Source of the DNA: Oscillospiraceae bacterium
GTDB lineage: Bacteria; Bacillota; Clostridia; Oscillospirales; Oscillospiraceae
Direction of reading: 5' to 3'
Assembly (NCBI GenBank): GCA_009786445.1
Contig: WQTE01000001.1
Span: 1 to 56,831, forward strand
Length of the DNA stretch: 56,831 nucleotides
This document shows positions 10,264 to 51,584 of the stretch, in pieces. Numbering within the stretch: position 1 is the stretch's first letter; each line of letters begins with the position of its first letter. The notes under the pieces are model-generated. The model saw nothing but the letters and a program-made list of their open reading frames with translations. It was not told the origin of the DNA and ran no database searches. The position numbers and the translations under genes were made by a program.

Positions 10264-10460
10264 TATAGCCGCAAGCCAGTCCCTGTGAAAATGATTGTGT
10301 CTTAGGCGTAGCAAATTAGCGACTCACGGCGAAATTTCGGAAAAGTGCTCGCACTGTCTGAGCGAAGCGAGTTTGCGAGCACCCGAAATGAGCCGATGAG
10401 TCGCTTTTTGCGGATGCCGTTAAGCAATCATTTTCACAGGGACTGGCTTGCGGCTATATC
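10262..10460. repeat. 199-nt palindromic intergenic element with 36-nt perfect terminal inverted repeats
   Basis: 10262-10297 (GATATAGCCGCAAGCCAGTCCCTGTGAAAATGATTG) is the exact reverse complement of 10425-10460. The 127-nt core is itself an imperfect palindrome. Fills the convergent gap and overlaps the eda 3' end. Confidence 0.85.
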
Positions 10461-11069
10461 GCTCGCTACCTTTGAGAGTTCTGTTATTCTTTCAAAGTTG
10501 CCGCTACTTATATCTTTTTTCTCGCACAGCCAACTGCCGCCTACTGCATGGATGAATGGAGCACTTAAATATTCCTTGAGATTTTTAGCCGATACGCCTC
10601 CTGTGGGTATAAACTTAACTCCGCCAAACGGACCTGCCAATGCTTTCATTGCAGAAAGGCCTCCATAGACGTTTGCGGGAAAAAACTTTACTATGTTTAA
10701 ATCCAGTTTCAGAGCTTCCATTATTTCGGTAGGGGTCACACATCCGGGTACAACAACTATTTTATTGTCTACACACCATTTTACTACCTCGTAGTCAAAT
10801 CCCGGTGAGACTATGAACTTTGCACCTGCATCTACCGCTGCTTTGCATTGCTCAAGTGTTATCACAGTTCCCGCACCGACACAGATATCGGTACAGCCCT
10901 CTGCTACTTGTTTTATGGAGTCCAATCCTGCTTCAGTTCTGAGTGTAATCTCCATAACATTGATTCCACCCGCTAATAAGGCTTTTGCGGTATTTATTGC
11001 ATCTTCCGATTTTTCCATGACCACAACCGGAACAATACCGCTTTTTTTCATTTCGGCAATAATATCCAT
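10434..11069 (-). CDS. eda: 2-dehydro-3-deoxyphosphogluconate / 4-hydroxy-2-oxoglutarate aldolase (KDPG aldolase)
   Basis: 211 aa. Motifs GIVPVVV..., GGINVMEITLRT, GAGTV, KFFPA, FIPTGG are typical of Eda-family class I aldolases. Confidence 0.85.
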   Translation of the reverse strand: MDIIAEMKKSGIVPVVVMEKSEDAINTAKALLAGGINVMEITLRTEAGLDSIKQVAEGCTDICVGAGTVITLEQCKAAVDAGAKFIVSPGFDYEVVKWCVDNKIVVVPGCVTPTEIMEALKLDLNIVKFFPANVYGGLSAMKALAGPFGGVKFIPTGGVSAKNLKEYLSAPFIHAVGGSWLCEKKDISSGNFERITELSKVASDIAASQSL

Positions 11070-12028
11070 TATACTTTCCCTTTATACTTTTTCGCTGCTG
11101 TTTCCATCAACATATAGAATGCCTGTCCTTCTGAAGCATAACCGGAGTGGTCAAAGTGGGGAGCTCCGCAGACTTCAGTGACTAAGCCGTATCTGTCAAT
11201 TTTTGTGTTGACCGCTGCGCTCATTTTGTTTGCCGCTTCAAGATAGCATCCTTTATCCAGTAATCCTTCGGCAAGTCCCCTGTAGATGGTGTATGCCATC
11301 ATTTGCGGGAAGTTTGTCTCAACGAAAGTTTCGGGATTATCTAAAACATCGTGGAAAAGACCATCTTCACGCATATGTGGAAGTGCACCATCAAGCAATG
11401 TTGTAATTTTACCCAAGAGTTTTTTTCTCTCTGTTCCCGCGCTTTCGGGCAGAGCCGAAAGCACTCTCATTATTCCCGCCAGTGCCCAGCCATTTCCTAC
11501 GCCCCAGACATCGCTGCGTATGAATTTCTTTTCATTTTCGTTATACATATGTCCCAGCAGGTTTTTTTTGGGGACAAATAAAGTATCCCAATAGCCGTCG
11601 ATTTGTTTTATGGCTTCTTTATAGTTACCTGCCGCAGCGAGGTAAGGGGGGAGCATATATACTGAATCTATCCAAAACTCCGGCTTATCCATCACGTGAT
11701 ACAAGATTCCATCTGCGCTTCTCGGCGCAGTTTCCAAAACCCATCTATCGAGCTTTTCCAGCGCATCTTTAAATATTGGGTCGCCGGTTTTTTCGTATGC
11801 AAATAATATTGGCTCACCGGCGGCTACAGGGTCTGTCACTGCGTTATGATGTCCAATCATAGCAGGTCGCCCATCGTCAATTTGACGATGGACGGCCTCT
11901 CGTGCCAAGCAAATAGTTTCCTCTTCGTCTCCGCATTCTAAAAACGCCTGAGCCACAACGCCATGCTCCCAAGGATACCTTTGCATCGCCAGCGTCATGA
12001 GTTTTACCTGCTTTAGCTTATTATTCAT
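11069..12028 (-). CDS. Glycoside hydrolase family 88/105-like (unsaturated uronyl hydrolase-like)
   Basis: 319 aa (alpha/alpha)6-type pattern: RYPWEHGV, FWIDSVYMLPPY (catalytic Asp context), GVGNGWALAG. Start overlaps the eda... see note: its stop overlaps the eda start by 1 nt. Confidence 0.6.
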   Translation of the reverse strand: MNNKLKQVKLMTLAMQRYPWEHGVVAQAFLECGDEEETICLAREAVHRQIDDGRPAMIGHHNAVTDPVAAGEPILFAYEKTGDPIFKDALEKLDRWVLETAPRSADGILYHVMDKPEFWIDSVYMLPPYLAAAGNYKEAIKQIDGYWDTLFVPKKNLLGHMYNENEKKFIRSDVWGVGNGWALAGIMRVLSALPESAGTERKKLLGKITTLLDGALPHMREDGLFHDVLDNPETFVETNFPQMMAYTIYRGLAEGLLDKGCYLEAANKMSAAVNTKIDRYGLVTEVCGAPHFDHSGYASEGQAFYMLMETAAKKYKGKV

Positions 12029-15905: not shown

Positions 15906-16667
15906 TTATTTCTCTTGATTAGGTTGACCGTTCCACGCTGAAAGACCGCCGTCAACAGGCAAGTTCACACCACACATATGGTCTGCCGCATCTGATGCGA
16001 GAAATACTATTGCGTTTGCACAGTGTTCAGGCTCGCAAAGCCTCTTGTCGGGCATGTTCTTTCTGAAACTCTCTAAAACTGCCTCGGATGCGCCTGTGAG
16101 GAACATAGGAGTTTTGACAGCACTCGGAGAAACTATATTGACTCTTACGCCTTGTACAGAGTAGTCCATCGCCATCGCTCTTGACATCGCATGAACCGCG
16201 CCCTTGGTTGCGCAATAGAGCGACATATTGTAGTCCCCGCCCATTCCGGATACAGACGATACATTGACTATTGCACCTTTTTTCTTCGCTAACATTTGCG
16301 GTGCTAAAGCCTTACAAGTGTTGAAAACACCTCTCACGTTTATGTCAAACTGGAAGTCATAATCGTCCATCGGTGCTTCATGCAACAGACCTACGCGGAA
16401 TACTGCGGCGTTATTTACAAGCACATCGCATCCACCGCTTGCCTTTACGTCCGCTGCCAGTGCATCTACTTCGGCAGGCTTGGAAACATCCAGTGTTTTC
16501 ATAGCCACCTTGTCTCCGAATGTTTTAGCAAATTCGTCATACGTTTCTTTCAGGGTTTTTTCGTTGTAATCTGCGAGAAAAACTTTGTCGCCAAGTTCAA
16601 GGAATTGCTTTGCTGTAGCCTTTCCTATACCGCTGGCACCCCCGGTCACTACTACGTTTCTTGCCAT
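15906..16667 (-). CDS. SDR-family oxidoreductase (KduD/FabG-like)
   Basis: TGGASGIGKA cofactor motif, NNAAV, catalytic S...YCATKGAV (YxxxK). Only 50 nt downstream of the last BMC-P gene, with no terminator in between. Confidence 0.85.
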   Translation of the reverse strand: MARNVVVTGGASGIGKATAKQFLELGDKVFLADYNEKTLKETYDEFAKTFGDKVAMKTLDVSKPAEVDALAADVKASGGCDVLVNNAAVFRVGLLHEAPMDDYDFQFDINVRGVFNTCKALAPQMLAKKKGAIVNVSSVSGMGGDYNMSLYCATKGAVHAMSRAMAMDYSVQGVRVNIVSPSAVKTPMFLTGASEAVLESFRKNMPDKRLCEPEHCANAIVFLASDAADHMCGVNLPVDGGLSAWNGQPNQEK

Positions 16668-16717: not shown

Positions 16718-16975
16718 TTATTTATAATCAATTGTATAGTGGTCAATAACTCCGCAAATCGTTATGTCTGCCACAATGTCCCTATCTCCCAACACCATAT
16801 TGCTTGCCCCACCGTCAGCAACAACGAGAACAGTGTCGCCAACGCCCGCATCTGCAACATCAAATGCGATTTCACGGCTACCGCTCTCGTTTTCAACTAT
16901 CATGAGTTTGTGCCCGGAAAACGATTCATCTTTAACTGTTGAAACTACGTTCCCTACTACTTTTGCAATTCGCAT
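16718..16975 (-). CDS. BMC vertex pentamer protein (BMC-P, EutN/CcmL/PduN family), paralog 3
   Basis: 85 aa. MRIAKVVGNVVSTVKDESFSGHKLMIV... is the typical EutN/CcmL N-terminal beta-barrel pattern. Confidence 0.85.
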   Translation of the reverse strand: MRIAKVVGNVVSTVKDESFSGHKLMIVENESGSREIAFDVADAGVGDTVLVVADGGASNMVLGDRDIVADITICGVIDHYTIDYK

Positions 16976-16978
16976 ATT

Positions 16979-17245
16979 TTACAGTTCCTCGTTGTAGCTG
17001 TCGATAAAACCTACTATTGCGGCATCGGCAGGTACCAACGGTTGCCTAAACACGCGAGAGGCTTCCTTTGAACCTATCAGATAGACAAAGTCGCCACTCC
17101 CGGCTTGCCTTGTCGCATCGGCAGCCACAATCAGCTTGGTCTTTTTACCATTTTCTATAAGTCTTACTACCAGAAGAGGCACACCTTCCAAGCCCTCAGA
17201 CTTGACAGAAGATACGACCGTTCCGCTCACTTCTCCAGTGTACAT
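16979..17245 (-). CDS. BMC vertex pentamer protein (BMC-P), paralog 2
   Basis: 88 aa. ..GEVSGTVVSSVKSEGLEGVPLLVVRL...VAADATRQAGSGDFV..IVGFID matches the EutN/CcmL pattern. Confidence 0.8.
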   Translation of the reverse strand: MYTGEVSGTVVSSVKSEGLEGVPLLVVRLIENGKKTKLIVAADATRQAGSGDFVYLIGSKEASRVFRQPLVPADAAIVGFIDSYNEEL

Positions 17246-17246
17246 A

Positions 17247-17558
17247 TCACTCGCTCCCGCCTACCTGCGCCTTATCGAATATCCGCGCTCCGCTAACATC
17301 GATATGGTCAATTATCGCCACAATCGAGTTATCCACCGGTTTTCCGTCGGTAGCATTCGTTTGACGTGAAGAACTTCCACTTACAGTCATTACCACTTCT
17401 CCGGTACCTGCACCAACTGTGTCAACACTCACCAGCAATGGTCCGGTTTCCTTAAACGAATCTAAGTCAATCGCCCGGACCAAAAGCAACTTCATGCCCG
17501 AAAGTTTTTCGGTTTTGTTTGTGCTTACTACTGTGCCAACAACCCTGCAAATTTGCAT
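17247..17558 (-). CDS. BMC vertex pentamer protein (BMC-P), paralog 1
   Basis: MQICRVVGTVVSTNKTEKLSGMKLLLVRAI...VDTVGAGTGEVV..IVAIID. Start taken at the internal ATG 17558. The ORF track starts at 17579. Confidence 0.8.
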   Translation of the reverse strand: MQICRVVGTVVSTNKTEKLSGMKLLLVRAIDLDSFKETGPLLVSVDTVGAGTGEVVMTVSGSSSRQTNATDGKPVDNSIVAIIDHIDVSGARIFDKAQVGGSE

Positions 17559-17597
17559 ACTAATGACCATTCCTTTCACTTGGATGCTTCATGCAAC

Positions 17598-18659
17598 CTA
17601 GTCTTCCGGCTTGAACAAAACCTTTGTAAATACTTCCGTTCGGTTAAACATCATTTCAAACGCTTTTTGACCATCTTCCAAACGATAACGGTGTGTAATC
17701 AGCGGGTTGACTTTAATTGCGCCCGACTGCATGAATCTAAGCGCTGTCTCCCATTCATGTATTGGTAGTGGGTTTGGCAATGAATTCCACGATCCGCGTA
17801 TGGTTATTTCGCCGCGTAATATGTGGGCAATCGCATCGTTGGGATAAACTACGTCGTCATATGTTATACCGCAATAGATGACCGTTCCGCTTTTCTTTGC
17901 TGATTGAAGAGACTGTACATATGTGATTTTGTTGCCTGCCAGTTCGACTGCTGTATCTACTCCGCCCGAAGTCAGTGCAATAATCTCCTTGACAGGGTCC
18001 TCCTGCATTGCGTTAATGCCTTTTGTTGCGCCCAAGCGTTCGGCAAGCCTAAGCTTTTCATCAGAAATATCAACCGCATAAACAGTTGTGTAGCCGAGTG
18101 CTCTAAACCATTGAACGGTCATATAGCCAATCGCGCCCATACCATACACTGCGGCAGAACCTCCTGCTTCCACTGTTCCGCTCTGGCGAACAGCGTGCAG
18201 TGCAACGGACATCGGGTCAGCCATGCAACCCATTTCATAGTCAACATTTGAAGGCAACTTCAAGCAATTTGCAGATTCTATCACTATGTATTCCGCCATT
18301 GCGCCATCGCGGCGTGAACCATAATAGTCGTAATTATCGCACATATGGTATTTTGCCGATTTGCAATACTCACAAACACCGCAAGGTATCATCGGTAATG
18401 CAGTCACTCTGTCGCCTACTTCAACGTTTTTAACACCGGAACCTATTTCAAGAACCTCACCTGCAAATTCATGTCCGATTGTTGTCGGGAAACTGTAGGT
18501 GCCTTTGACCATAACGCGTGCTATGTCAGAACCGCAAACCCCGCAGCTTTTAACTTTTACAAGTACCTGTGAGTCTTTCTCTATTACAGGCACATCTACC
18601 TCAACGCAACGTATATCACCGGGAGCAAAAAGGCGCAGTGCTCTCATTTTTGAAGCCAT
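17598..18659 (-). CDS. Zn-dependent MDR alcohol/polyol dehydrogenase inside the BMC operon
   Basis: CGVCGSD, GHEFAG, structural Zn cluster (CGVCEYCKSAKYHMC), GMGAIG Rossmann motif. No obvious terminal extension. Confidence 0.8.
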   Translation of the reverse strand: MASKMRALRLFAPGDIRCVEVDVPVIEKDSQVLVKVKSCGVCGSDIARVMVKGTYSFPTTIGHEFAGEVLEIGSGVKNVEVGDRVTALPMIPCGVCEYCKSAKYHMCDNYDYYGSRRDGAMAEYIVIESANCLKLPSNVDYEMGCMADPMSVALHAVRQSGTVEAGGSAAVYGMGAIGYMTVQWFRALGYTTVYAVDISDEKLRLAERLGATKGINAMQEDPVKEIIALTSGGVDTAVELAGNKITYVQSLQSAKKSGTVIYCGITYDDVVYPNDAIAHILRGEITIRGSWNSLPNPLPIHEWETALRFMQSGAIKVNPLITHRYRLEDGQKAFEMMFNRTEVFTKVLFKPED

Positions 18660-18674
18660 ACTCTTTCTCTCCTT

Positions 18675-19481
18675 CTAATACGCCGTGCCGGCAGCGGCAG
18701 GTTTTCCGGTCGATTTTCCACAGGCTCCGCAGACAATTACAACACCGGAGCTTGTTCCTAAGCGGTTTGCACCTGCATCTATCATTGCTTTTGCTGTTGC
18801 AGCCTCTTTAATGCCACCGGAAGCTTTAACTCCGATTTCACTGCCTACAACCTTGCGCATCAAGCTGACATCTTCCACAGTTGCTCCACCGGTGGAAAAC
18901 CCTGTAGAGGTCTTAACGAAGTCTACTCCGACCATTTTACAGATAGCGCATACACGCACTTTTTCCTCATCGGTCAGCAGACTTGTTTCGATAATTACTT
19001 TGAGCAAAGCACGTCCTGACACCGCCATATAAATCGACTCTATGTCGTTTTTGACATAATCCCAGTCGCCTGATTTGACAGCACCAACGTTTATTACCAT
19101 GTCGACTTCTTTTGCGCCGTTTTCGACTGCTTCTCTTGCTTCGTACACCTTGGTTTTTGTGGTTGTCGCACCGAGTGGGAAGCCTATAACGGTGCAAACT
19201 TTTACATCGCTGCCTTTAAGGCAATCGCGACTAAGCGGAACAAACCAAGGGTTTACGCAAACCGAAACAAATCGGTGCTCCATCGCTTCTTTGCACAGCT
19301 TTTTGACATCACTCTCTGTTGCTTCTGCTTTGAGCAATGTGTGGTCAATAAAGTTGCAAAATCCGCTGTTCTTGCAATTTGAAGAACTTCCACCACTGCT
19401 CCCTGTATTAAGAGATTTTTCGTTGCGCAGTTTTTGGTATATCTCTTCAGTTATTTTTTCAATTAATAAATCCATGTCCAT
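18675..19481 (-). CDS. deoC: Deoxyribose-phosphate aldolase (DERA) with about 43-aa N-terminal extension (encapsulation-peptide-like helix + Gly/Ser linker)
   Basis: Core [11 protein letters not shown]...VCVNP...[10 protein letters not shown]...LKVIIET...[15 protein letters not shown]...GVKASGG is collinear with Firmicutes DeoC, including the Schiff-base Lys context VKTSTGF. It is preceded by [34 protein letters not shown]. Confidence 0.9.
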
Positions 19482-19550
19482 GTCTATCGTATTTCATCCC
19501 TTCTTATAGCATTTTTACTCAAACAACTACCGAATCCTCGGTGTCGTGAC

Positions 19551-19829
19551 TTATTTGCCTTTGGGGAGAATTTTTTCCACGTCTTCATGCGGGCGCGGAA
19601 TAACATGTACAGATACCAATTCGCCGACACGCTTTGCTGCTGCTGCTCCTGCTTCCGTGGATGCTTTAACTGCACCAACATCGCCGCGTACCATGACTGT
19701 GACGAGTCCGCTACCGATTTGCTCTTTGCCCAGAAGTGTGACATTTGCAGCTTTTACCATTGCATCTGCTGCCTCAACTGCTCCCACGAGACCTTTTGTT
19801 TCTACCATTCCTAATGCTTGCTTTTCCAT
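19551..19829 (-). CDS. BMC shell hexamer protein (BMC-H, PduA/EutM-like)
   Basis: 92 aa. [53 protein letters not shown]... is a canonical single BMC domain. Confidence 0.95.
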
Positions 19830-19893
19830 ATTCTATTAATTTCCTTTCTAAATTTGAATGTTTTCCTAAAATAACTTTGACCTCATTTTTTAT

Positions 19894-20400
19894 TTATGAA
19901 GGCAAAATGATTTCCACTTCTTCATGGGGACGCGGTATTACGTGTACCGATACAAGCTCCCCAACGCGCTTGACTGACTGTGCACCTGCTTCGACCGCCG
20001 CTTTGACTGCGCCGACGTCGCCGCGCACCATAACAGTGACCAGACCGCCGCCTACCGTCTGCTTGCCTACAAGGCTAACATCGGCAGCTTTTACCATCGT
20101 ATCCGCAGCTTCAATTGCGCCTACGAGTCCGCGGGATTCTACCATACCCAGTGCTTCCAGTTTCATTGCTCTCCCCTCCTTTCCTGTTTTTACGGGAACT
20201 TCGCTTTTTGTTACTTTTGCCGTCGTTGCATTTTTTGTTGCCGCTGCGGGTGCAGTTTTCGTTGCCGCTACACTTGCCACTGCGGGCGAAGTTTTGGTTG
20301 TAGCCGCGCTTTTCTTTTCGGGTGCAGCTACGCTTTTTGTTGCAGTTGCAGTTGCGGTTGCAGCTTTCGTTGCAGTCGCGCTTTTCTTAGTCACCGCCAT
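19894..20400 (-). CDS. BMC-H shell protein with 78-aa Ala/Thr/Lys-rich N-terminal extension (alternative short form from ATG 20166)
   Basis: C-terminal 90 aa ([35 protein letters not shown]...) is a canonical BMC-H. The upstream in-frame 78 codons are low-complexity A/T/K. Strong RBSs precede both ATG 20400 (AAGGAGGG) and ATG 20166 (AGGAGGGG). Confidence 0.8.
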
Positions 20401-20413
20401 AAAAGCCCTCCTT

Positions 20414-20959
20414 TTATATCAATGCTTCGCGGATAGATTCATGCGGAGCAGGAATAACTGATGTACGCGCTATCATTCCTTCACATTCCGGGACAGATTT
20501 TCCGACCCGTACAGCTTCGCTTACCGCACTAACATCTCCGGTTAGCACAACATATGATTTTCCGCCTAATCCGCGCCCCAGCCGTATTTCTATCAGCAAT
20601 ACGTCCGCCGCTTTGACTGCGGCATCTGAGGCATGAATACATGAGGCAAGGGAAAATGTCTCTATTACACCAATCGCTCCGGTTTCCGGAATCTCCGCTG
20701 CGCCGTTTATAGCCTGAAATACTTGTTTATGTACATTCGGAATCAGCAAACTATCGACAATATTCTCGGCACCCGTCGCAACTCCGGCTTCCACTGAACT
20801 TTTGACAGCGGCAACACTGCCGCGCACCATAACGACAAACTTACCCGAACATACGGGATTTGCCGCAGTAAGCGTTGTCGCCGCAACTTTAAGCATACTG
20901 TCTCCGGCTTCTATTCCGGCTGCAATGCTATTGAGTTCTACCAGTCCCAGTGCATCCAT
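20414..20959 (-). CDS. pduT: Tandem-domain BMC shell protein (BMC-T, PduT-like)
   Basis: 181 aa with two BMC domains ([22 protein letters not shown]..., [22 protein letters not shown]...). Cys37 in NPVCSGKF is in register with the pore [4Fe-4S]-ligand Cys of PduT. Confidence 0.8.
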
Positions 20960-22302
20960 TATGCGTTTCCTCCTACAGCTTGTATTTCAACAAATCCATT
21001 GTCCACTGCCGCCACCACACCGGAGATACTGGCGTGGACATTAGCTCCCAGTTGACCTTCGGGTATGTTTCCGATTATATCACCCGGCTTAACCGATTGC
21101 CCTTTTTTCACACAAGGGGTGCACGGTGCTCCGATATGTTGTTTGAGTGGGATTTTTACACGCTCTGTCTTAATTGGCTCACGTTCCATAGGTGCGGGTA
21201 CATCGTAAGCACGAATTCCCAATCTGCTGACGAGTCGGCTTACAGGCAGATTCTTGACGGTGCGCTCGGCTGACACTCCTATCGACTCTTTATTCTCAAA
21301 CGGAACTTTTTTCTTAAGAAGCTCGCTTTTTAGCATTCCCATAATTCTGCTCGGTAATAGTTCCATCGTGCAAGCGAAGTATGAACATATCCCGCATTCG
21401 CAGCAACTTATCACTTGCTCGGGGACCATGCCGTCGCCGCTTCCGAAAGCTATCGCTCTCATCGCCTTGTGCGGCGATGTTTGCTGTCCCAGGGTGTTTC
21501 GGGGACACATCAGTGTGCATTGGTTACATCCGCAACACGCCGCACGGCTGAGCTTTATCTGGCTTTGCAGTGGCGAGGTCTTTTTGGTTATTAGCCCGTG
21601 ATCCTTTTTCAGCACTATGATGCCACCCAGGGTTTTGGTTACAGGTGTGTCCCAATCTGATGTGACTGCTCCCATTGCAGGACCACCGAGCAGTAGCGCA
21701 TACTCTTCTTCGTTTGCCGGACCGTCGGCATACTCAACCAGCTTACGTACAGACGTTCCGATTGGTGCTAAAACCGTAACCGGTTTACTTACCTCTCCTG
21801 TAATCGTCACATACTTGTGAGTAACAGGGTTATCATCCATTGCCTCTGCAACGTTTACGAGCGTATTGACATTTAGCACCACCGCGCCTTTGGCTATCGG
21901 TATACCGCCGACAGGAACTACCTCTCCGGTTACTTCATATACAAGTGCCTGTTCATCTCCGGCAGGGTAATAGTTGCTAACGGTAAGTAGCGAAATGTCC
22001 TTTTTTGTGTCAGAAATAACTTTTTTCAGGCTCTTGACGGCTTGTTTGTATTTTTCTTTCAAGCAGATGACACCGCGCTTCGCACCTGCCAGTTCCATCG
22101 CAATGTCCACGCCTTTTACAACTTGAGCCGCATAATGTTCCATAATTTGCTGATCAACCCGCAAAAGCGGCTCGCACTCTGCGCCGTTTGCTATAATCAC
22201 TTGCGCCTGCGCCCCAAGTTTAACATGGGTCGGGAAGCCTGCGCCGCCTGCGCCGACGATTCCTGCCGCACGTATTTTTTCAATGTGTGATGTCGCAGCC
22301 AT
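20959..22302 (-). CDS. pduS: PduS-like flavo-iron-sulfur protein (RnfC/NuoF-like, 2x[4Fe-4S])
   Basis: 447 aa. GAGGAGFPTHVKL nucleotide/FMN motif, and two ferredoxin-type Cys clusters (CCGCNQCTLMCP; CCECGICSYFAC). C-terminal barrel-sandwich-like segment. Its stop overlaps the BMC-T start by 1 nt. Confidence 0.75.
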   Translation of the reverse strand: MAATSHIEKIRAAGIVGAGGAGFPTHVKLGAQAQVIIANGAECEPLLRVDQQIMEHYAAQVVKGVDIAMELAGAKRGVICLKEKYKQAVKSLKKVISDTKKDISLLTVSNYYPAGDEQALVYEVTGEVVPVGGIPIAKGAVVLNVNTLVNVAEAMDDNPVTHKYVTITGEVSKPVTVLAPIGTSVRKLVEYADGPANEEEYALLLGGPAMGAVTSDWDTPVTKTLGGIIVLKKDHGLITKKTSPLQSQIKLSRAACCGCNQCTLMCPRNTLGQQTSPHKAMRAIAFGSGDGMVPEQVISCCECGICSYFACTMELLPSRIMGMLKSELLKKKVPFENKESIGVSAERTVKNLPVSRLVSRLGIRAYDVPAPMEREPIKTERVKIPLKQHIGAPCTPCVKKGQSVKPGDIIGNIPEGQLGANVHASISGVVAAVDNGFVEIQAVGGNA

Positions 22303-22344
22303 AAATAACTTAATCTCCTGTATTTTGTAAGGTCAATGTTAGCG

Positions 22345-23778
22345 TTAAAGAATGTAGAACGAACCTGACAGGGCGCATCTTCGGGCACGCACAAAGCTCT
22401 TTGCCGAGGTAACGCCTTCCCCTGTAGGTGTTGCAATTGTAAGACTTGTATGACCTTCTCCTTCAAGTCCCAGCCCCGCAAACGATGGTGCATTTTTCAC
22501 AAAAATCGTTGTATCGAGTGCTCTTGCAGCAATCGTGAGGTTATCAATGTTCTTTGAGTGCATTATTGCTGTGTGGAGGTATCCGTTTTCTGCGGCTACC
22601 GCCCTTTTCACGGCTTCTTCAAAACTTCCAACCGATACTATGGGTAACACAGGCATAAGCATTTCTGTTGTGACAAGTGGATGTTCCGCCTTGCATCTGC
22701 ATATTATGAGAACAGGCTCGCCACTATAGTTTATTCCGCAGCTTTTGAGGATATGTGTTGCGCTGCGCCCTACGAAATTTTTATTTGCAGCCAGTCCGTG
22801 TTTTGTTTCGGCAATAACGGTACGGGCAATAATCTCAACTTCCCTTTCGTCAGCTAAGTAGCATCCTGCCGCAACCATGTTCTCAACCAATCTACTTTCA
22901 ACACTGCTTACAACAAAGACTTCTTTTTCAGCTATGCACATTACGTTATTGTCAAATGATGCCCCGCGGGTGATGTCTTTTGCGGCTTTTTCTATGTCAG
23001 CAGTTTCGTCAACTATAACAGGAGGATTCCCGGGACCTGCCGCTATGACTTTTTTGCCGCTTCTCATCGCAAGGTTTACAACAGCCTCTCCGCCTGTTAT
23101 CGCGAGCATTCTTATTTGTGCGTGTTCCATCAGTTCTTTGCCTGTCGCTGCCGAGGGCTGCACAACAGTGCCTAAAAGGCTTGATACTCCGCAGGTTTCT
23201 CTGATTGCTCTGTTAAGTATTTTTACAGCTTCGTTTGATGCATTTTTCGCACCCGGATGCGGATTAAATACCACTCCGTTTGCTCCTGCAATCATGCTCA
23301 AACTGTTATTGATAATTGTGGCTGTGGGGTTTGTAGACGGTGTAATAGATCCGATTACGCCATACGGCGCATGTTCAATCAAAGTTAGTCCATTGTCACC
23401 GGAATATGCTGTCGGGATAAAGTCTTCCAAACCCGGGGTTTTTTCTGCGGCAACGCGATTTTTCGCAATTTTGTGTGCTACAACGCCATAGCCTGTTTCC
23501 TCATGCGCCAGCTTCGCAAGAAGCTCTGCATTATCTACAGCGGCACGGCGCATGGCTTCAATGACCTCTGCGCGTTTTCTGACAGGTAACCTACTAAACT
23601 GCGCTTGACTCTCAGAAACCGCTGAAACTGCTTGACTAATGGTTTCGTAGACACCATCCTCCCGGACAGTGTGAGCAGAAAATGCTCCGGGCACAGGCGC
23701 GTTGGCACCGTTGATGCCGTCAGTGCTTACTCCCATTTCAAGCAATATTTCTTTAATTTGGGTGTCAGTCATTCCCAT
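22345..23778 (-). CDS. CoA-acylating aldehyde dehydrogenase (PduP/EutE family) with N-terminal encapsulation-peptide-like helix
   Basis: 477 aa. Catalytic Cys context FDNNVMCIAEKEVFV, and EutE/PduP-like length. The N-terminus MGMTDTQIKEILLEMGV resembles PduP/EutE targeting helices. Confidence 0.85.
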   Translation of the reverse strand: MGMTDTQIKEILLEMGVSTDGINGANAPVPGAFSAHTVREDGVYETISQAVSAVSESQAQFSRLPVRKRAEVIEAMRRAAVDNAELLAKLAHEETGYGVVAHKIAKNRVAAEKTPGLEDFIPTAYSGDNGLTLIEHAPYGVIGSITPSTNPTATIINNSLSMIAGANGVVFNPHPGAKNASNEAVKILNRAIRETCGVSSLLGTVVQPSAATGKELMEHAQIRMLAITGGEAVVNLAMRSGKKVIAAGPGNPPVIVDETADIEKAAKDITRGASFDNNVMCIAEKEVFVVSSVESRLVENMVAAGCYLADEREVEIIARTVIAETKHGLAANKNFVGRSATHILKSCGINYSGEPVLIICRCKAEHPLVTTEMLMPVLPIVSVGSFEEAVKRAVAAENGYLHTAIMHSKNIDNLTIAARALDTTIFVKNAPSFAGLGLEGEGHTSLTIATPTGEGVTSAKSFVRARRCALSGSFYIL

Positions 23779-24179
23779 TATACACTGCTCTCCTCATTTA
23801 TGATTTCCATTCCCAACTCGCGTGCTCTGTCCGCTGCGAGTGGTGTAATTATACAGTTTTTTCCGATATTCAGTACAGTCTGCCCTGACCTATGCAGAGA
23901 AATTATGTCGTCCTCAAGCAGTAATTCGCTTCGCACTTCACTGCTGTTTTGTTTTCCCTTTGTGTTGCAGCAGCCATCGCATATTTTAAGCTCTGATTCT
24001 ACGATTTCTCTGAGCAACTGCTTCAAAAGCTTAAAAAGGTCGGCTGATATTTTCACTTTATCGCCCTTGCCTGAGCAGCAACCTTGACCAAGTGCTTTTG
24101 GTGCTTCGGCAACTCTATTTTTCACGCCGAACCTACTCTCGGTATCTTCAACCAAACGTTTTATCTCTGCATCAGTCAT
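23778..24179 (-). CDS. Small Cys-rich BMC-associated protein of unknown function
   Basis: 133 aa. Two GCCxxKG motifs (GCCSGKG, GCCNTKG), each next to an amphipathic helix (AEIKRLVEDTESRF; DLFKLLKQLLREIVE). C-terminal ..IITPLAADRARELGMEI module. Its stop overlaps the AldDH start by 1 nt. Confidence 0.6.
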   Translation of the reverse strand: MTDAEIKRLVEDTESRFGVKNRVAEAPKALGQGCCSGKGDKVKISADLFKLLKQLLREIVESELKICDGCCNTKGKQNSSEVRSELLLEDDIISLHRSGQTVLNIGKNCIITPLAADRARELGMEIINEESSV

Positions 24180-24200
24180 TTTAAAGACTTTCCTTTCAAA

Positions 24201-24800
24201 CTAATCCGGCATTAAAATCTCTATGCTCTGCCCATCCGTAAGCCCCGCTGCTGTGGCTTCATCGCTGTCGAGATGTAGCTCCACGCACTCTTTCTCACTT
24301 ATGCGCACAAGCACCTCTTCAAAAATCATTTTCCGCTCACCACTGTTCACAGCGGCACAAAGCTTTTGTCCATCCGATAAACGGTATATAGTCGCATACT
24401 CACGAGATATGTACAGACTCCGCGCCGATGCAGCAGCACCATGTTCCAAAACAACTTCCCCTTGCGGTCCGCGTAATATGCACTTTGCGCATTTGCCAAA
24501 ATCCCCGTTAAAAACTCGTAAACCTTTTATTCCTATTTGTAATGCTTCGGTAAAACTTATGTTTACCAGTGTTTTTTCGTATTTACCCGAAGCTGTCACA
24601 ACCTGTTTTAGTGTGTTTTTTGGTCCGCACACATCCAGTGTGCCTATAGACCCGCTCCCAAAAAGAGTCTGCTTGTCTGCCGGGCTTAGGTGAACATGAG
24701 TCGGCATAACAACCGTCCGGGCATACAATCCTTCCCCCGCTTTGGCAAAAGCCGCAAACAATCCCATTTCAACTCGGCATTTCAGCTCATCTTTCTGCAT
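24201..24800 (-). CDS. pduL: PduL-type phosphotransacylase (divergent second repeat)
   Basis: 199 aa. First-repeat motif PTHVHLSPADKQTLFG and C-terminal GERKMIFEEVLVRISEKECVELHLDSDEATAAGL match PduL. The second-repeat RHIHM position reads RSLYI. Confidence 0.75.
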   Translation of the reverse strand: MQKDELKCRVEMGLFAAFAKAGEGLYARTVVMPTHVHLSPADKQTLFGSGSIGTLDVCGPKNTLKQVVTASGKYEKTLVNISFTEALQIGIKGLRVFNGDFGKCAKCILRGPQGEVVLEHGAAASARSLYISREYATIYRLSDGQKLCAAVNSGERKMIFEEVLVRISEKECVELHLDSDEATAAGLTDGQSIEILMPD

Positions 24801-24852
24801 CAGTTCACTTCCTGTAAAATCTATCGCCCAACTACCTTTAGCGCATCATTAA

Positions 24853-25602
24853 TTATATGCTTCCCAGAATCTCGTTCATGCTCTCCGGAGCCAGGCTCGC
24901 ACCACCTATTAAAAATCCATCAACACCATCAAGTGCAGCCACACCAGCAATATTATCCGGCTTAACGCTGCCACCGTATAGTAGCGGAACCTTGGAGCCT
25001 TGTTCGCCAAATTGCTCTATCAGAACCCTGCGTATCCAACCCATCGTCTCACTTATCTGCTCGGGACCTGCGATTTTCCCTGTGCCTATTGCCCAAATCG
25101 GCTCGTAAGCGATGATTAGCGGCGATATCTTCGCACCAATGAGCCCGCCAATAATCTGACGGCAGAGAACTTTGTGATATTCGCCACTTTCACGCTCCTG
25201 CAAAGTCTCCCCTATACATACCAGCGGGGTTATGCCGTTTCGCTGTGCGGCACGGACTTTTAGGTTAACCTGTATGTCGGTTTCGTGGAACATGCTACGG
25301 CGTTTGCTATGCCCTATAATAACGTGGGTTCCTCCTGCATCAAGCAGCATTTCTGCTGATATTTCGCCTGTATATGCGCCATCTTTTTCCCAGTGCATAT
25401 TTTGCAGACCCACCACAATATTCTTCTTTTTCGCAGTTGCACTGATTAAAGGCAAAGCTGTCGCCGGAACAAAAAGCATTATCTCTATTCCATCCCTGCA
25501 CTCCGGCCTAAGGGCATTAAAATATTCTTTCGCCTCCGTCCCGGTCATATACATTTTCCAGTTTCCGGCAACTATTAAATTTTTGTTTTTACCCTCACTC
25601 AT
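24853..25602 (-). CDS. tpiA: Triosephosphate isomerase (operon-dedicated paralog)
   Basis: 249 aa. AGNWKMY (Asn/Lys), IIGHSKRR (His), AYEPIWAIGTG (Glu), YGGSVKP. First gene of the BMC operon. Confidence 0.9.
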   Translation of the reverse strand: MSEGKNKNLIVAGNWKMYMTGTEAKEYFNALRPECRDGIEIMLFVPATALPLISATAKKKNIVVGLQNMHWEKDGAYTGEISAEMLLDAGGTHVIIGHSKRRSMFHETDIQVNLKVRAAQRNGITPLVCIGETLQERESGEYHKVLCRQIIGGLIGAKISPLIIAYEPIWAIGTGKIAGPEQISETMGWIRRVLIEQFGEQGSKVPLLYGGSVKPDNIAGVAALDGVDGFLIGGASLAPESMNEILGSI

Positions 25603-25641
25603 AGGAACTCCATTTCATTTAGGAACGTTTGTTACTGAGCT

Positions 25642-25657
25642 AGTTACTCTTGTAACT
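25642..25657. promoter_or_regulatory. 16-bp palindrome AGTTACTCTTGTAACT (operator candidate at the BMC operon transcription start)
   Basis: AGTTAC / GTAACT arms separated by 4 nt, directly abutting the minus-strand -10 box. An extra GTTAC half-site lies at 25631-25635. Confidence 0.45.
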
Positions 25658-25686
25658 ATTGTATCAGTTGTAAACATCCCTGTCAA
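25658..25686 (-). promoter_or_regulatory. Sigma-70-type promoter of the BMC operon
   Basis: On the minus strand: TTGACA (25681-25686), 17-nt spacer, TACAAT (25658-25663). About 55 nt upstream of the tpiA ATG. Confidence 0.6.
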
Positions 25687-49468: not shown

Positions 49469-49506
49469 TTACAAATGTAACCAGACATTACATCGGACAC
49501 TACATC
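49469..49506. promoter_or_regulatory. Operator-like repeats just downstream of the -10 box
   Basis: Inverted repeat TTACA-AA-TGTAA (49469-49480), followed by a tandem direct repeat GACATTACATC / GACACTACATC (49484-49494, 49496-49506). Confidence 0.4.
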
Positions 49507-49539
49507 ACTTATTTTTGTAAACTTTAAAGGAGAGTATAT

Positions 49540-50583
49540 ATGTTAGCTTATCTTCTCGACCAAAACGGCTCAATTTCAATACAAAACGTTCCCGAGCCAA
49601 GTCCGGCAGAGCAAAACGCCATTCTCAAAGTGAAGTCGGCATCTATTTGCGGTACTGATTTTCGGACGTTTATGCACGGCAACACCAAAATAGACCCTCC
49701 CAGAATTTTGGGTCATGAAAGTGCGGGCGAGATTGTCCACGCAGGAGCTTTTGCAAAGGCTCACGGCATAGAGCCCGGTCAAAGGGTAACTGTTGCTCCC
49801 GCCATCGGGTGCGGTGAGTGCTGGCCTTGCAAAACCGGACACACCAATATGTGCGACAACTTAACAACCTTGGGCTTTCAGTATGAGGGCGCGTTTGCAG
49901 AGTATATGGAAATACCGATGCAAGCTATTAAGATGGGTAATGTTTTGCCTATACCTGAAAACGTAGATTATGACGATGCGGTTTTGGCAGAGCCGGCTGC
50001 GTGCGGGCTGAATGCTCAGTCTTATCTCCACATCACAAAAGGCGATTACGTAGTTATATACGGCAGCGGATTTATAGGCTGTGTACACGCCGAACTTGCA
50101 AAACTTGCAGGGGCAGACAAAGTTATTATGGTTGAGATTGCGGCGCCGCGCCGTGAAATCGCAGAGCAGATGGTGCCCGGCATAGAAATTATCGATCCGG
50201 TTGCTGAAAATACCGCAGAGCAGATTTCACGCCTTACCGGCAAGCGCGGTGCAAATGTAGTTATAACCGCACTTTCTGTACCGCAGATTCATACCGAGGC
50301 GCTTGAGGTTGCTTCAAAAATGGGCCGCATAAGCCTGTTTGGCGGCATACCCGGCGATGGCAAGGGGTATCTTGACAGCAATTTGATACATTATAAAGAA
50401 TTGTGCGTGTATGGTGCTCACGCCACGCCGCCTTCTATGATAAAAGATCTCTTAAATCGCGTTGCCGCGGGCAATATGAATCTTAAAAAATATATCACTA
50501 AAAAACTTCCCCTAACCGAAATTGAAAGCGGCTTCATAGCACTCAGAGACGAAAACGCAATGAAAATCGTGCTCAACCCATAA
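49540..50583 (+). CDS. Zn-dependent MDR dehydrogenase (threonine/sorbitol dehydrogenase-like)
   Basis: ICGTDFR, GHESAG, CGECWPCKTGHTNMC, GSGFIG. AAAGGAGAG RBS. Confidence 0.8.
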   Translation: MLAYLLDQNGSISIQNVPEPSPAEQNAILKVKSASICGTDFRTFMHGNTKIDPPRILGHESAGEIVHAGAFAKAHGIEPGQRVTVAPAIGCGECWPCKTGHTNMCDNLTTLGFQYEGAFAEYMEIPMQAIKMGNVLPIPENVDYDDAVLAEPAACGLNAQSYLHITKGDYVVIYGSGFIGCVHAELAKLAGADKVIMVEIAAPRREIAEQMVPGIEIIDPVAENTAEQISRLTGKRGANVVITALSVPQIHTEALEVASKMGRISLFGGIPGDGKGYLDSNLIHYKELCVYGAHATPPSMIKDLLNRVAAGNMNLKKYITKKLPLTEIESGFIALRDENAMKIVLNP

Positions 50584-50621
50584 AACATATCGCAAGAATA
50601 TGAGAGGAATGGTCATTTTAT

Positions 50622-51584
50622 ATGGATTACAAAAGAATAGATCTACTGGTCAATGTCGCAAAACTTTATTATGAGCACGGATATAACCAGAATATGATTG
50701 CAAAAAAACTCAATCTCTCTCGACCGTATATATCAAAACTGCTCTCACAAGCTATGGATGAAGGGATTATTACTATTAAGATTAACGATCCTTCCCACAC
50801 CGAAACCCCCTTAGAGAGGGAGCTTAGACAGCGCTTTGCTTTGCGTAAAGTTATAATCGTGCCTCAGAGCATGGATAAGACCCCGCTTGCAAAAGTCGGT
50901 CTTGCCTGTGCCAGATACTTAAATACTATTGTTTCCAGTGACGATGTTGTTGGTGTTTCGTGGGGCTCAACCATGTTTGCTTGTGCACAAAACGCCATTG
51001 CTAGAGAAGACCTTACAGGTGTCACCGTTGTGCAGCTTTGCGGTGGTATTACGAACATTGACCGCAACATATATGCAAGCGAAATACCGCAGCTTTTTGC
51101 TACGGCGTTCGGTGCTTCACCATACATTCTGCCTCTGCCCGCGATAGTAGATGATGCCCAGGTCAAGCATTCTATGCTCACCGACAGCACCATAAATCAT
51201 GTCATGGACTATGCGCATAAAGCGAATATTGCTATCTTCACCGTTGGTCAATTCGGGGAGGATAACGCTTTGATTCATGCGGGTTATCTGTCCGGTTTTC
51301 CACAAAAAAAGCTGGATGAGGCGGGAGCTGTTGGGGATGTCTGCTCACACTTCATTGACGAAAAAGGAAATCTTTGCGATACAGGTCTTGACGAGAGAAC
51401 TATAGGGCTTTCTTTGGGAGATCTAAAGAAAAAGGACTATCGCATTGCTGTTGCCGTAGGTCAGAAAAAAATCAGAAGTATCTGTGGCTCGCTCAACGGC
51501 GGGTACGTAAATGTACTCATTACCGATGAAGACACAGCACACGGTGTAATAACTCGCCTTGACAAACTGGCATCACGCTCCTGA
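50622..51584 (+). CDS. SorC/DeoR(B. subtilis-type)-family sugar-phosphate-binding transcriptional regulator
   Basis: N-terminal HTH (LVNVAKLYYEHGYNQNMIAKKLNLSRPYISKLLSQAMDEGII) plus a C-terminal sugar-binding domain (VGVSWGST..., ..GAVGDVCSHFID..G), as in CggR/DeoR/SorC. Confidence 0.8.
   Translation: MDYKRIDLLVNVAKLYYEHGYNQNMIAKKLNLSRPYISKLLSQAMDEGIITIKINDPSHTETPLERELRQRFALRKVIIVPQSMDKTPLAKVGLACARYLNTIVSSDDVVGVSWGSTMFACAQNAIAREDLTGVTVVQLCGGITNIDRNIYASEIPQLFATAFGASPYILPLPAIVDDAQVKHSMLTDSTINHVMDYAHKANIAIFTVGQFGEDNALIHAGYLSGFPQKKLDEAGAVGDVCSHFIDEKGNLCDTGLDERTIGLSLGDLKKKDYRIAVAVGQKKIRSICGSLNGGYVNVLITDEDTAHGVITRLDKLASRS

Follow-up and report, generated by a model that had tools for sequence, protein, structure and literature searches.

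Bacterial microcompartments of the sugar-phosphate-utilising (SPU) class were defined by Axen et al. (2014). Sutter et al. (2021; PMC8217296) found SPU in more than 280 loci from 26 phyla and divided the class into seven subtypes, of which SPU4 is the closest to the locus described here. According to their Supplementary Data 2, SPU4 hosts belong to the Clostridiales or Bacillales, and the loci encode an aldehyde dehydrogenase (AldDH), an aldolase of family PF01791, a PF02502 protein, a phosphotransacylase (PTAC) and a triosephosphate isomerase (TIM). They also encode eut_hyp (TIGR02536) with a 30–40-aa N-terminal encapsulation peptide (EP), and N-terminal EPs are found on AldDH, on deoxyribose-phosphate aldolase (DERA) and on PTAC; the shell genes are a triplet of pentamers (BMC-P) and two hexamers (BMC-H), without a double-layer trimer (BMC-T); 14 of the loci have a single-layer trimer that goes with PduS. 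In a curation of 206 loci, Dwyer, Sutter and Kerfeld (2024; PMC11585597) gave SPU a new definition, DERA plus AldDH; ribose-5-phosphate isomerase (RPI) was present in 18 of 29 SPU4 loci and in none of SPU5. A truncated DERA from subtype SPU6 cleaved deoxyribose-5-phosphate and formed a complex with an RPI that itself had no isomerase activity. The SPU loci published in PMC8217296 and PMC11585597 have no other signature enzyme, and the text of these papers (locus tables apart) mentions alcohol dehydrogenases of the Fe type (PF00465) only. Our literature search found no later work specific to SPU4. SPU is among the most widespread microcompartment types; no native host has yet been shown to build or use one. 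Here we describe an operon of 13 open reading frames (ORFs) on contig WQTE01000001.1, whose whole 56.8-kb stretch is called the window, and compare it with SPU4 and with other described systems.

We consider it likely that this cluster is a functional SPU4-type metabolosome operon of an uncultured clostridial bacterium. Protein families were assigned with Pfam and with NCBIfam models at their curated bit-score cut-offs, the Pfam scan covering nearly all window ORFs of at least 150 aa. The 13 ORFs are intact, tightly spaced and all on the minus strand between 16718 and 25602, in the order TIM, PduL, eut_hyp-like protein, AldDH, PduS, PduT (BMC-T), BMC-H twice, DERA, Zn dehydrogenase and BMC-P three times. 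An ORF check returned, gene by gene, the order, strand and coordinates listed in an earlier note on this DNA (Table 1); of the several 1-nt overlaps that this note had described, two exist (at 23778 and 20959), the remaining junctions being gaps of 1–69 nt. Both parts of the SPU definition are present, an aldolase encoded among shell genes and an AldDH in the same locus, and DERA, AldDH and TIM all score above their curated cut-offs. The features of SPU4 are likewise found: a PduL-type PTAC together with TIM, a BMC-P triplet, two similar BMC-H, a single-layer BMC-T adjacent to PduS, and no double-layer BMC-T. Matches to the BMC, EutN/CcmL, PduL, Aldedh and DeoC-type families were all as the earlier note had predicted. 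In full agreement with that note, no diol dehydratase, ethanolamine lyase, B12-dependent or glycyl-radical signature enzyme or class II aldolase was found among the scanned ORFs of the window.

The catalogue description of SPU4 matched the window point by point except for the missing RpiB (pfam02502), with a eut_hyp match that covers only part of that family's layout. No RpiB (PF02502) was found among the scanned ORFs, and a tblastn search with 17 RpiB seeds was also empty, which ruled out a copy concealed in a small ORF. This absence does not exclude membership of SPU4, because RPI is reported for 18 of 29 SPU4 loci and for none of SPU5; the window shares the lack of RpiB with 11 of the 29 curated SPU4 loci. 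Relative to SPU4 loci the window has in common the EP-bearing AldDH and DERA, PduL, TIM, the BMC-P triplet, two BMC-H, PduS with a 181-aa PduT (catalogued SPU4 PduT proteins are 181–182 aa), a clostridial host, and the order AldDH-PduS-PduT-H-H-DERA seen in Lachnospiraceae/Dorea loci (L010, L011 and L015 of the comparison set described below). It differs in having a Zn dehydrogenase resembling galactitol-1-phosphate 5-dehydrogenase (GatD) directly after DERA, an eut_hyp protein cut down to its targeting helix and C-terminal domain, a TIM without an EP, and a long low-complexity extension on the first BMC-H.

The cluster is not a chance assembly, because independent metagenome contigs and a metagenome-assembled genome (MAG) show this gene order again, with most proteins 41–98% identical and the eut_hyp-like protein 36% identical. 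DERA of the window is encoded on several metagenome contigs in an identical gene order, and relatives whose DERA is 72–75% identical keep the whole order TIM-PduL-(eut_hyp)-AldDH-PduS-PduT-H-H-DERA-Zn dehydrogenase-P-P-P, with identities running from 36% (eut_hyp-like) and 41% (PduL) up to 98% (BMC-H). The best species-representative match was the Defluviitaleaceae MAG Co191P1bin70 (74% identity), and the source lineage is probably an uncultured clostridial bacterium of the termite gut.

The SPU class assignment of the earlier note was therefore upheld by these comparisons, and is sharpened here to the SPU4 subtype of Clostridia. Its statement that the class had not been demonstrated experimentally is out of date for the enzyme, given the cleavage of deoxyribose-5-phosphate by SPU6 DERA (PMC11585597), and its novelty was overstated, since more than 200 SPU loci are catalogued and SPU4 loci without RPI were already counted. 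The locus leaves the concept of SPU unchanged, being a further example of a type catalogued in 2021 whose key enzyme was tested in 2024. What is new is the GatD-like, DERA-adjacent Zn dehydrogenase as a conserved orthogroup across SPU4-like loci; a set of recurring partners comprising a second Zn dehydrogenase, a Bacillus-DeoR-like regulator, an FGGY kinase and a ribose-type ATP-binding cassette (ABC) importer; and a candidate operator connecting the organelle promoter with the DeoR-like regulator. These recurring clostridial SPU4 partner genes are without discussion in the text of the SPU papers (locus tables apart). The main remaining interest is in the conserved accessory genes, the candidate DeoR-type operator and the possibility of addressing SPU physiology in culture, since Christensenella hongkongensis HKU16, for example, carries a locus of this type; Anaerotruncus colihominis is among the SPU4 carriers that published work names.

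The only SPU locus with biochemical data, that of the SPU6 Chloroflexi bacterium GWB2_54_36 (PMC11585597), shares with the window the N-terminal extension of DERA, the catalytic Asp/Lys/Lys, AldDH and the BMC-P triplet, and the model reaction is the same (deoxyribose-5-phosphate to acetaldehyde plus glyceraldehyde-3-phosphate). In SPU6 the EP of AldDH is C-terminal and the DERA extension is 70 residues long; the locus further includes an RPI partner, a double-layer BMC-T and a GntR regulator, and PduL, PduS/T and TIM are missing. The window, in contrast, has a 40-residue DERA extension, PduS/T, PduL, TIM and a DeoR-like regulator. With the propanediol and ethanolamine organelles (PDU/EUT) of Salmonella enterica the window would share the logic of aldehyde trapping, with an AldDH with an N-terminal EP, recycling of CoA by PTAC and of NAD+ by an alcohol dehydrogenase, the PduS/PduT redox pair and a shell of hexamers, trimers and pentamers. 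Its signature enzyme is, however, a cofactor-free class I aldolase in place of a B12-dependent dehydratase or lyase, genes for B12 handling and for reactivases are missing, pentamer paralogues number three instead of one, and the dehydrogenase is of the Zn-dependent medium-chain (MDR) type and not an Fe alcohol dehydrogenase. The fucose/rhamnose microcompartments (types GRM5 and PVM) are likewise organelles in which a sugar-phosphate aldolase gives an aldehyde and a triose phosphate, and GRM5 components include Zn-type dehydrogenases; they use class II (PF00596) aldolases to form lactaldehyde and dihydroxyacetone phosphate, and the window has no such aldolase. The dra-nupC-pdp operon of Bacillus subtilis under DeoR resembles the window in its DeoC aldolase and its SorC-family DeoR-type repressor. 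It has no shell, targeting helix, dedicated AldDH or PTAC, and it is fed by a nucleoside transporter and phosphorylase, neither of which the window has; the window regulator, for its part, scores under the equivalog cut-off for Bacillus DeoR.

[quoted passage not shown] Residues 41–257 of the window DERA align over the full length of solved DERAs (about 65% identity by eye to 8qps), and the equivalents of the E. coli residues D102, K167 and K201 are all present, as Asp in VDMVIN, the Schiff-base Lys in LKVIIE and the second Lys in VKTSTG. The KASGG and GTS loops, which we take to be the phosphate-binding loops, are present too, and the C-terminal Tyr is conserved. The catalytic motifs and loops were invariant across 40 relatives, and by these residues the enzyme qualifies as a predicted deoxyribose-phosphate aldolase (EC 4.1.2.4). 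The targeting-helix-like N-terminal extension described in the earlier note was borne out by the alignment start at residue 41, by the structural model and by a conserved motif. An AlphaFold2 run with a 40-sequence alignment gave a helix at residues 3–24, a disordered Gly/Ser stretch at 25–40 (model confidence, pLDDT, below 50 at 25–35) and a confident barrel. The helix has the highest hydrophobic moment within the protein, and its motif M-D-[IL]-x-x-L-I-x-x-I-T-x-E-I-Y is kept in Lachnospiraceae, Christensenellaceae and Synergistales loci; housekeeping DERAs (of Lysinibacillus, Clostridium and other loci) match the window DERA only from about residue 34–44 on.

Conserved N-terminal helices are also found on AldDH, PduL and the 133-aa eut_hyp-like protein, and are absent from TIM and the Zn dehydrogenase. 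The AldDH motif T-D-x-Q-I-K-E-I-L-L-E-M-G is kept in relatives, and the PduL motif ...LFAAFAKAG in L005 and L007. The ORF that the earlier note had called Cys-rich is real, and is better described as a truncated eut_hyp-type protein. In full-length eut_hyp members (220–250 aa) a targeting helix at the N-terminus is followed by a central domain, a linker that varies and is often rich in Cys, and the conserved C-terminal motif LLxExDVxxLHRxGxxxLxxxxxxIITPLAxDRARDLGxEL. The 133-aa protein matched TIGR02536 over its C-terminal 54 residues only (26.9 bits against a cut-off of 152.6); its central, flavoprotein-like domain is missing, so that its layout is a targeting helix, a Cys-rich disordered linker, a helix and a 50-aa beta-alpha-beta-alpha-beta domain. 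In the AlphaFold2 model these correspond to a helix at 3–16, the disordered linker, a helix at 46–65 and a domain at 79–128 (pLDDT above 90). A Foldseek search of this model against the PDB gave no match with E below 0.05, and Pfam gave none for the protein itself or for six eut_hyp family members. A word-indexed homologue search returned only the protein itself; an exhaustive HMMER search was needed to find relatives, and gave 35 whose common part was the last 50–80 residues only. Short forms without the central domain also occur in L007 and L009. The Cys-rich linker was rejected as a conserved metal site, as its cysteines lie in a disordered region and are unconserved family-wide (Cys clusters occur there in roughly one member out of three). 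To call the protein a scaffold or adaptor would be a guess. In L005 (4934–5815) the C-terminus of a 293-aa PduL is extended by the eut_hyp module in its short form, made up of N-terminal helix, linker and C-terminal domain, a hint that the two proteins are physically linked.

The full shell set of hexamer, tandem trimer and pentamer proposed in the earlier note was confirmed by the PF00936 and PF03319 matches. PduT keeps the pore-cysteine motif P-V-C-S-G-K-F found in clostridial relatives. The two BMC-H domains are 76% identical to each other, and the 92-aa form is 95–98% identical to its counterparts in L005, L007 and L009. For the first BMC-H there are two ATGs, one at 20400 giving the long form and one at 20166 at the start of the BMC domain, each preceded by a strong Shine-Dalgarno sequence, and the 78-aa extension may therefore not always be translated. 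The extension is encoded in part by a 6-nt tandem repeat (GTTGCA); extensions differing in length and sequence are present on the first BMC-H of L003, L005 and L009, and L007 has none. Among the three BMC-P paralogues those pairs that align are 33–36% identical, and each has its own orthologue in relatives; the start of the first is most likely at 17558, replacing 17579.

The comparison set consisted of 80 loci (L-numbers) from species-representative genomes, annotated against the window proteins. The clostridial and Synergistales loci among them fall into four layouts. The window type (L005–L009) has the order of the window. The Lachnospiraceae/Dorea type (L010, L011 and L015) reads Zn dehydrogenase-TIM-eut_hyp-AldDH-PduS-PduT-H-H-DERA-P-RpiB-P-P. 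The Christensenellaceae/Synergistales type, to which 11 loci belong (that of cultured C. hongkongensis HKU16 among them), starts with a shell/AldDH block, a second targeted DeoC paralogue and a DeoR-like regulator; then come a Zn dehydrogenase or two of them, the targeted DERA and genes for an FGGY kinase, TIM and an ABC importer. The reduced type (L003) retains TIM, eut_hyp and the shell genes together with a targeted DERA and the Zn dehydrogenase, and has no AldDH, PduL or PduS/T. RpiB is present in the Lachnospiraceae/Dorea type and absent from the other three; overall, 4 of these Firmicute-type loci have it and about 15 do not. The reduced locus was seen on contigs of 712 kb and 1.07 Mb (L003/L004) with three BMC-P and two BMC-H; it lies outside the published SPU definition because that definition requires AldDH.

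The second DeoC paralogue (L022:7045–7866, with equivalents in L014, L016, L018, L020, L023, L027, L038, L052, L059 and L087) is 31–35% identical to the window DERA and, in the loci whose copy was read at its N-terminus (L014, L022, L027 and L038), bears a targeting helix of its own; the L022 copy scores above the TIGR00126 cut-off. Organelles of the Christensenellaceae/Synergistales type would therefore hold two different aldolases. In L033 (Guopingia tenuis NSJ-63) a run of seven DeoC-like paralogues of 222–225 aa, 32–35% identical to the window DERA, lies upstream of position 10001 and precedes a SorC-type regulator gene and a housekeeping-length DERA.

The Zn dehydrogenase encoded next to DERA shows the Cys4 motif for structural zinc and, behind the second Rossmann strand, an Asp of the NAD type; it has no terminal extension. 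Its nearest characterised relative is GatD (NCBIfam 253 bits against a cut-off of 550; PDB 4a2c, 213 bits), followed by threonine, butanediol and sorbitol dehydrogenases. Orthologues of 69–77% identity stand directly after DERA in L003, L005, L007 and L009. When every MDR protein of the window and of the fetched loci was placed in a neighbour-joining tree, the result was one clade with the enzyme and the locus-associated dehydrogenases of all four layouts, including those of Lachnospiraceae, Christensenellaceae and Synergistaceae, and another with the window protein at 49540–50583 and the second locus-associated dehydrogenase of L007, L014, L020, L027, L032, L052 and L087. Of the AldDH, PTAC and alcohol dehydrogenase core described in the earlier note, AldDH and PduL were confirmed; the "Zn-ADH" was not shown to be an ethanol or acetaldehyde enzyme. 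We lean towards a role as the organelle alcohol dehydrogenase reducing acetaldehyde, because the metabolosome paradigm predicts an alcohol dehydrogenase and because, for fermentative redox balance, an acetaldehyde reductase would go naturally with DERA. PduQ and EutG are of the Fe-type fold (PF00465), whereas the operon enzyme is a Zn MDR protein and the only Fe-type alcohol dehydrogenase of the window (43998–45191) lies outside the operon; the Zn enzyme may function like PduQ, though it is not of that family. Downstream, the gap of 50 nt between the last BMC-P and a short-chain dehydrogenase (SDR) gene is without a terminator-like site, and the SDR is probably co-transcribed with the operon. 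It is closest to acetoin reductase/meso-2,3-butanediol dehydrogenase, and orthologues of 80–82% identity occupy the same position in L007 and L009. The specificity of both Zn dehydrogenases, the SDR and the FGGY kinases is ambiguous, because their NCBIfam and PDB matches are all under equivalog cut-offs.

An ethanol-utilising (ETU)-like organelle for ethanol or acetaldehyde, in which the Zn dehydrogenase oxidises ethanol, AldDH and PduL process the acetaldehyde and DERA is an accessory sink or source, would need no more than the alcohol dehydrogenase, AldDH and PTAC that occur together in the locus. We judge it very unlikely, as it is DERA that bears the best-conserved encapsulation helix of the locus and that defines every related locus, including L003 with neither AldDH nor PduL; TIM and the DeoR-like regulator, moreover, indicate a sugar-phosphate input.

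The near-consensus promoter placed by the earlier note upstream of the operon was confirmed by a consensus scan, and a GGAG ribosome-binding site precedes the tpiA ATG. Directly after its -10 box lies the palindromic sequence TTACAAnnGTAAC, which is also found directly after the -10 box of the DeoR-like regulator's own promoter 24 kb away. The architecture common to the promoters of the window, L005, L007, L009 and the gene pair at 49540–51584 is a -35 box TTGACA, a -10 box TAnAAT and, at once, nTTACAAnnGTAAC; those of them that drive organelle operons bear in addition a second site, AGTAwCAwAyGTTC. The exact pattern TTACAANNGTAAC has only two copies in the 56.8-kb window, one at the organelle promoter and one at the promoter of the DeoR-like pair, where the chance expectation for an 11-base pattern is about 0.03, with the pattern itself derived from these same regions. 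The sole other copy stands at the same promoter position, ahead of the one gene pair that adjoins the operon in a relative: in L007 the regulator and Zn dehydrogenase pair is divergent beside the organelle operon (69–77% identity). In L009 the regulator (65% identity) is divergent beside the operon next to a different Zn dehydrogenase, and orthologues of the regulator lie inside the Christensenellaceae-type loci. These positions suggest that TTACAAnnGTAAC is a candidate operator which would tie the organelle and regulator promoters into a single regulon. The B. subtilis DeoR repressor senses deoxyribose-5-phosphate. In two Lysinibacillus loci exact copies of the operator stand upstream of deoC and at first seemed to speak for a Bacillus DeoR operator; they were rejected as chance, since they lie inside the apparent 3' end of an upstream coding region.

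From the families, catalytic residues, helices, synteny and promoter motif read in the DNA we infer the following substrate, encapsulation, dehydrogenase role and regulation for this organism; the chemistries of the enzymes themselves are established from other work. A shell would be assembled from two hexamers, one PduT-type trimer and three pentamers, and the N-terminal amphipathic helices would recruit DERA, the acylating AldDH, PduL and the small eut_hyp-like protein into it. Acetaldehyde released by DERA from deoxyribose-5-phosphate would be converted by AldDH to acetyl-CoA with NAD+ and CoA, and PduL would regenerate the CoA, making acetyl-phosphate. NAD+ could be regenerated either by the Zn dehydrogenase, with a second acetaldehyde reduced to ethanol, or by PduS, in which case electrons would exit through the iron-sulfur centre at the PduT pore. 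TIM would equilibrate the triose phosphates for glycolysis. Transcription would start from the strong promoter at 25686–25658, and the DeoR-like regulator, whose gene lies 24 kb off, would probably act as its repressor by binding at TTACAAnnGTAAC after the -10 box.

Several points weigh against this account. TIM (best PDB match 1b9b; catalytic K, H and E present) is without a clear targeting extension, and its residues 96–102 read GHSKRR in place of the GHSERR of all other locus-associated and housekeeping TIMs; the change of E to K in this conserved motif is common only to L007, and its presence in both rules out a sequencing error. A further point is the truncation of the eut_hyp protein. 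The DERA-adjacent dehydrogenase is closest to a sugar-alcohol-phosphate dehydrogenase and not to known ethanol dehydrogenases, and bears no targeting extension. Two Zn dehydrogenases are unexplained by a model of DNA scavenging, as are the FGGY kinases, and no phosphopentomutase, nucleoside phosphorylase or PfkB deoxyribokinase was found among the scanned ORFs of the 56.8-kb window; the earlier note had already reported the absence of the kinase and the mutase, and its doubt that the feedstock is free deoxyribose is reasonable.

Some of these irregularities (the truncated eut_hyp, the missing RPI and the unusual TIM substitution), together with the fact that only 56.8 kb of an incomplete genome is visible, could also be those of a locus in decay or of a satellite, the true signature enzyme (B12-dependent or glycyl-radical) being encoded elsewhere in the genome. 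This is scarcely credible, as none of the 13 ORFs is broken, separate organisms keep the gene order with 41–98% identity for most genes, the operon itself encodes a targeted aldehyde-producing enzyme, and published SPU loci likewise have no other signature enzyme.

The feedstock was considered from the flanking genes. Those specific to this contig are a divergent rhamnulokinase-like kinase, a 385-aa barrel, LacI, GH88, 2-keto-3-deoxy-6-phosphogluconate (KDPG) aldolase and a mutarotase/ABC cluster at 30.9–36 kb. Those conserved with related loci are the DeoR-like regulator, two MDR dehydrogenases, the SDR, an FGGY kinase and the ribose-type ABC importer. Most of the flanking sugar genes that the earlier note had cited belong to the first group: the rhamnulokinase-like FGGY kinase, LacI, GH88, KDPG aldolase and mutarotase were rejected as parts of the system, being unconserved beside related loci and without the operator, a pattern that the window scan found at no flanking sugar gene. 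A Brucella-like family set comprises an FGGY kinase, AP_endonuc_2, TIM and RpiB homologues and a SorC regulator, and the 385-aa barrel weakly matches EryC; an erythritol-like tetrose-phosphate route was nevertheless rejected, as DERA has no place in it and the barrel is unconserved beside related loci.

The conserved neighbours fit import and phosphorylation of a free sugar, left unspecified by these genes, better than they would fit nucleoside phosphorolysis. The same organelle might thus be supplied with another feedstock, a free sugar or polyol imported by the ribose-type ABC system, carried through an MDR/SDR redox step and phosphorylated by the FGGY kinase. In such a pathway the GatD-like dehydrogenase would act on a sugar (or sugar-alcohol) phosphate and not on acetaldehyde, and DERA would cleave a 2-deoxy-aldose phosphate, or deoxyribose-5-phosphate made by a non-PfkB kinase. 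GatD as the best characterised relative of the DERA-adjacent enzyme points this way, as do the recurrence of the two MDR orthogroups with SPU4-like loci in four bacterial families and the lack of nucleoside-catabolic genes in the window scan. The downstream FGGY kinase of the window has orthologues in L007 (74%) and L027 (61%), and in Christensenellaceae loci an FGGY kinase follows targeted DERA directly (L022 and L027 were checked). These kinases are pentulokinase-like in L022 (Christensenellaceae type) and L003, and weakly xylulokinase-like in the window, L007 and L027. Ribose-type ABC importers flank L005, L007, L009, L015 and L022; PfkB kinases are found near the loci in L005 and L009.

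Set against these points, the dehydrogenase and kinase matches to named equivalogs are all well under the curated cut-offs, while DERA is far over the DeoC equivalog cut-off with its KASGG and GTS loops kept; the associated regulator is closest to the deoxyribose-5-phosphate-sensing DeoR of Bacillus; and a metabolosome would be expected to include an alcohol dehydrogenase. A natural polyol that gives a DERA substrate after one oxidation is not known, and our literature search found no paper linking FGGY kinases to deoxyribose (it also found no open-access paper on a GatD structure). Another feedstock is therefore unlikely in our estimate, and so, to the same degree, is the broader proposal that SPU4 organelles are not fed by nucleoside or DNA breakdown, which is the assumption of the published model, and that a DeoR-type regulon serving the use of some free sugar or polyol taken up from outside includes them. 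If this were true, the two MDR orthogroups, the FGGY pentulokinase-like kinase and the ribose-type ABC importer would make up an unrecognised upstream pathway, either an FGGY-family deoxyribokinase route or a new 2-deoxy-sugar phosphate route, with the DERA-adjacent dehydrogenase acting on a sugar phosphate.

Table 1. Coordinates of the operon, its promoter region and associated genes within the window, with the family matches or sites on which each entry rests.
Feature	Coordinates	Strand	Matches and remarks
Triosephosphate isomerase paralogue (TIM, tpiA)	24853..25602	-	PF00121 3.7e-82; TIGR00419 152.8 bits (cut-off 130.6)
PduL-type phosphotransacylase with N-terminal amphipathic extension	24201..24800	-	PF06130 5.4e-28
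Small eut_hyp-type protein, 133 aa	23778..24179	-	Weak TIGR02536 match, C-terminus only
CoA-acylating aldehyde dehydrogenase (EutE/PduP type) with N-terminal targeting motif	22345..23778	-	PF00171; NF011927 614.7 bits (cut-off 403)
PduS-type flavin and iron-sulfur oxidoreductase	20959..22302	-	PF01512 9e-47; PF13375; PF13534; PF10531; TIGR01945 264.8 bits
PduT-type tandem-domain shell trimer (BMC-T, single layer)	20414..20959	-	Two PF00936 domains, 1.4e-42; pore Cys37; best NCBIfam TIGR02526 139.6 bits (under cut-off 250.3)
BMC-H with 78-aa Ala/Thr/Lys-rich low-complexity N-terminal extension	19894..20400	-	PF00936 at residues 83-158, 1e-28
Canonical shell hexamer BMC-H, 92 aa	19551..19829	-	PF00936 2.1e-29
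Class I deoxyribose-phosphate aldolase (DERA) with N-terminal encapsulation helix and Gly/Ser linker	18675..19481	-	TIGR00126 294.7 bits (cut-off 117.3)
Zn-dependent medium-chain (MDR) dehydrogenase, no extension	17598..18659	-	PF08240 and PF00107
BMC-P pentamer, first paralogue	17247..17558	-	PF03319 3.2e-27
BMC-P pentamer, second paralogue	16979..17245	-	PF03319 1.3e-17
BMC-P pentamer, third paralogue	16718..16975	-	PF03319 2.6e-20
Short-chain dehydrogenase (SDR)	15906..16667	-	NF052558 259.7 bits (cut-off 270); 50 nt after last BMC-P
Sigma-70-type organelle promoter	25658..25686	-	TTGACA-17 nt-TG-n-TACAAT; 11/12 consensus positions, extended -10
Candidate operator	25623..25655	-	TTACAAGAGTAAC (25643-25655) directly 3' of -10 box; second site AGTAACAAACGTTC (25623-25636)
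Probable remote regulon partner	49469..51584	+	Operator copy 49469-49481; second Zn dehydrogenase 49540-50583; DeoR-like SorC-family regulator 50622-51584 (PF04198; best NCBIfam NF053881, Bacillus-type DeoR, 343.9 bits, under cut-off 420)

Three further observations concern the surroundings of these loci. GH88 unsaturated glucuronyl hydrolase and KDPG aldolase genes (10434–12028, minus strand) end the same-strand run downstream of the window operon and are absent from that position in relatives. In C. hongkongensis HKU16 a serine recombinase and a MobA/VirD2 relaxase are encoded just past the flanking ABC importer (L022:17270–20514), and this locus may sit on or beside a mobile element. Elsewhere in the window a separate ATP synthase delta gene was not evident between the b and alpha genes, and the 578-aa alpha subunit (4801–6537, plus strand) has a weak OSCP/delta-like match at its N-terminus.

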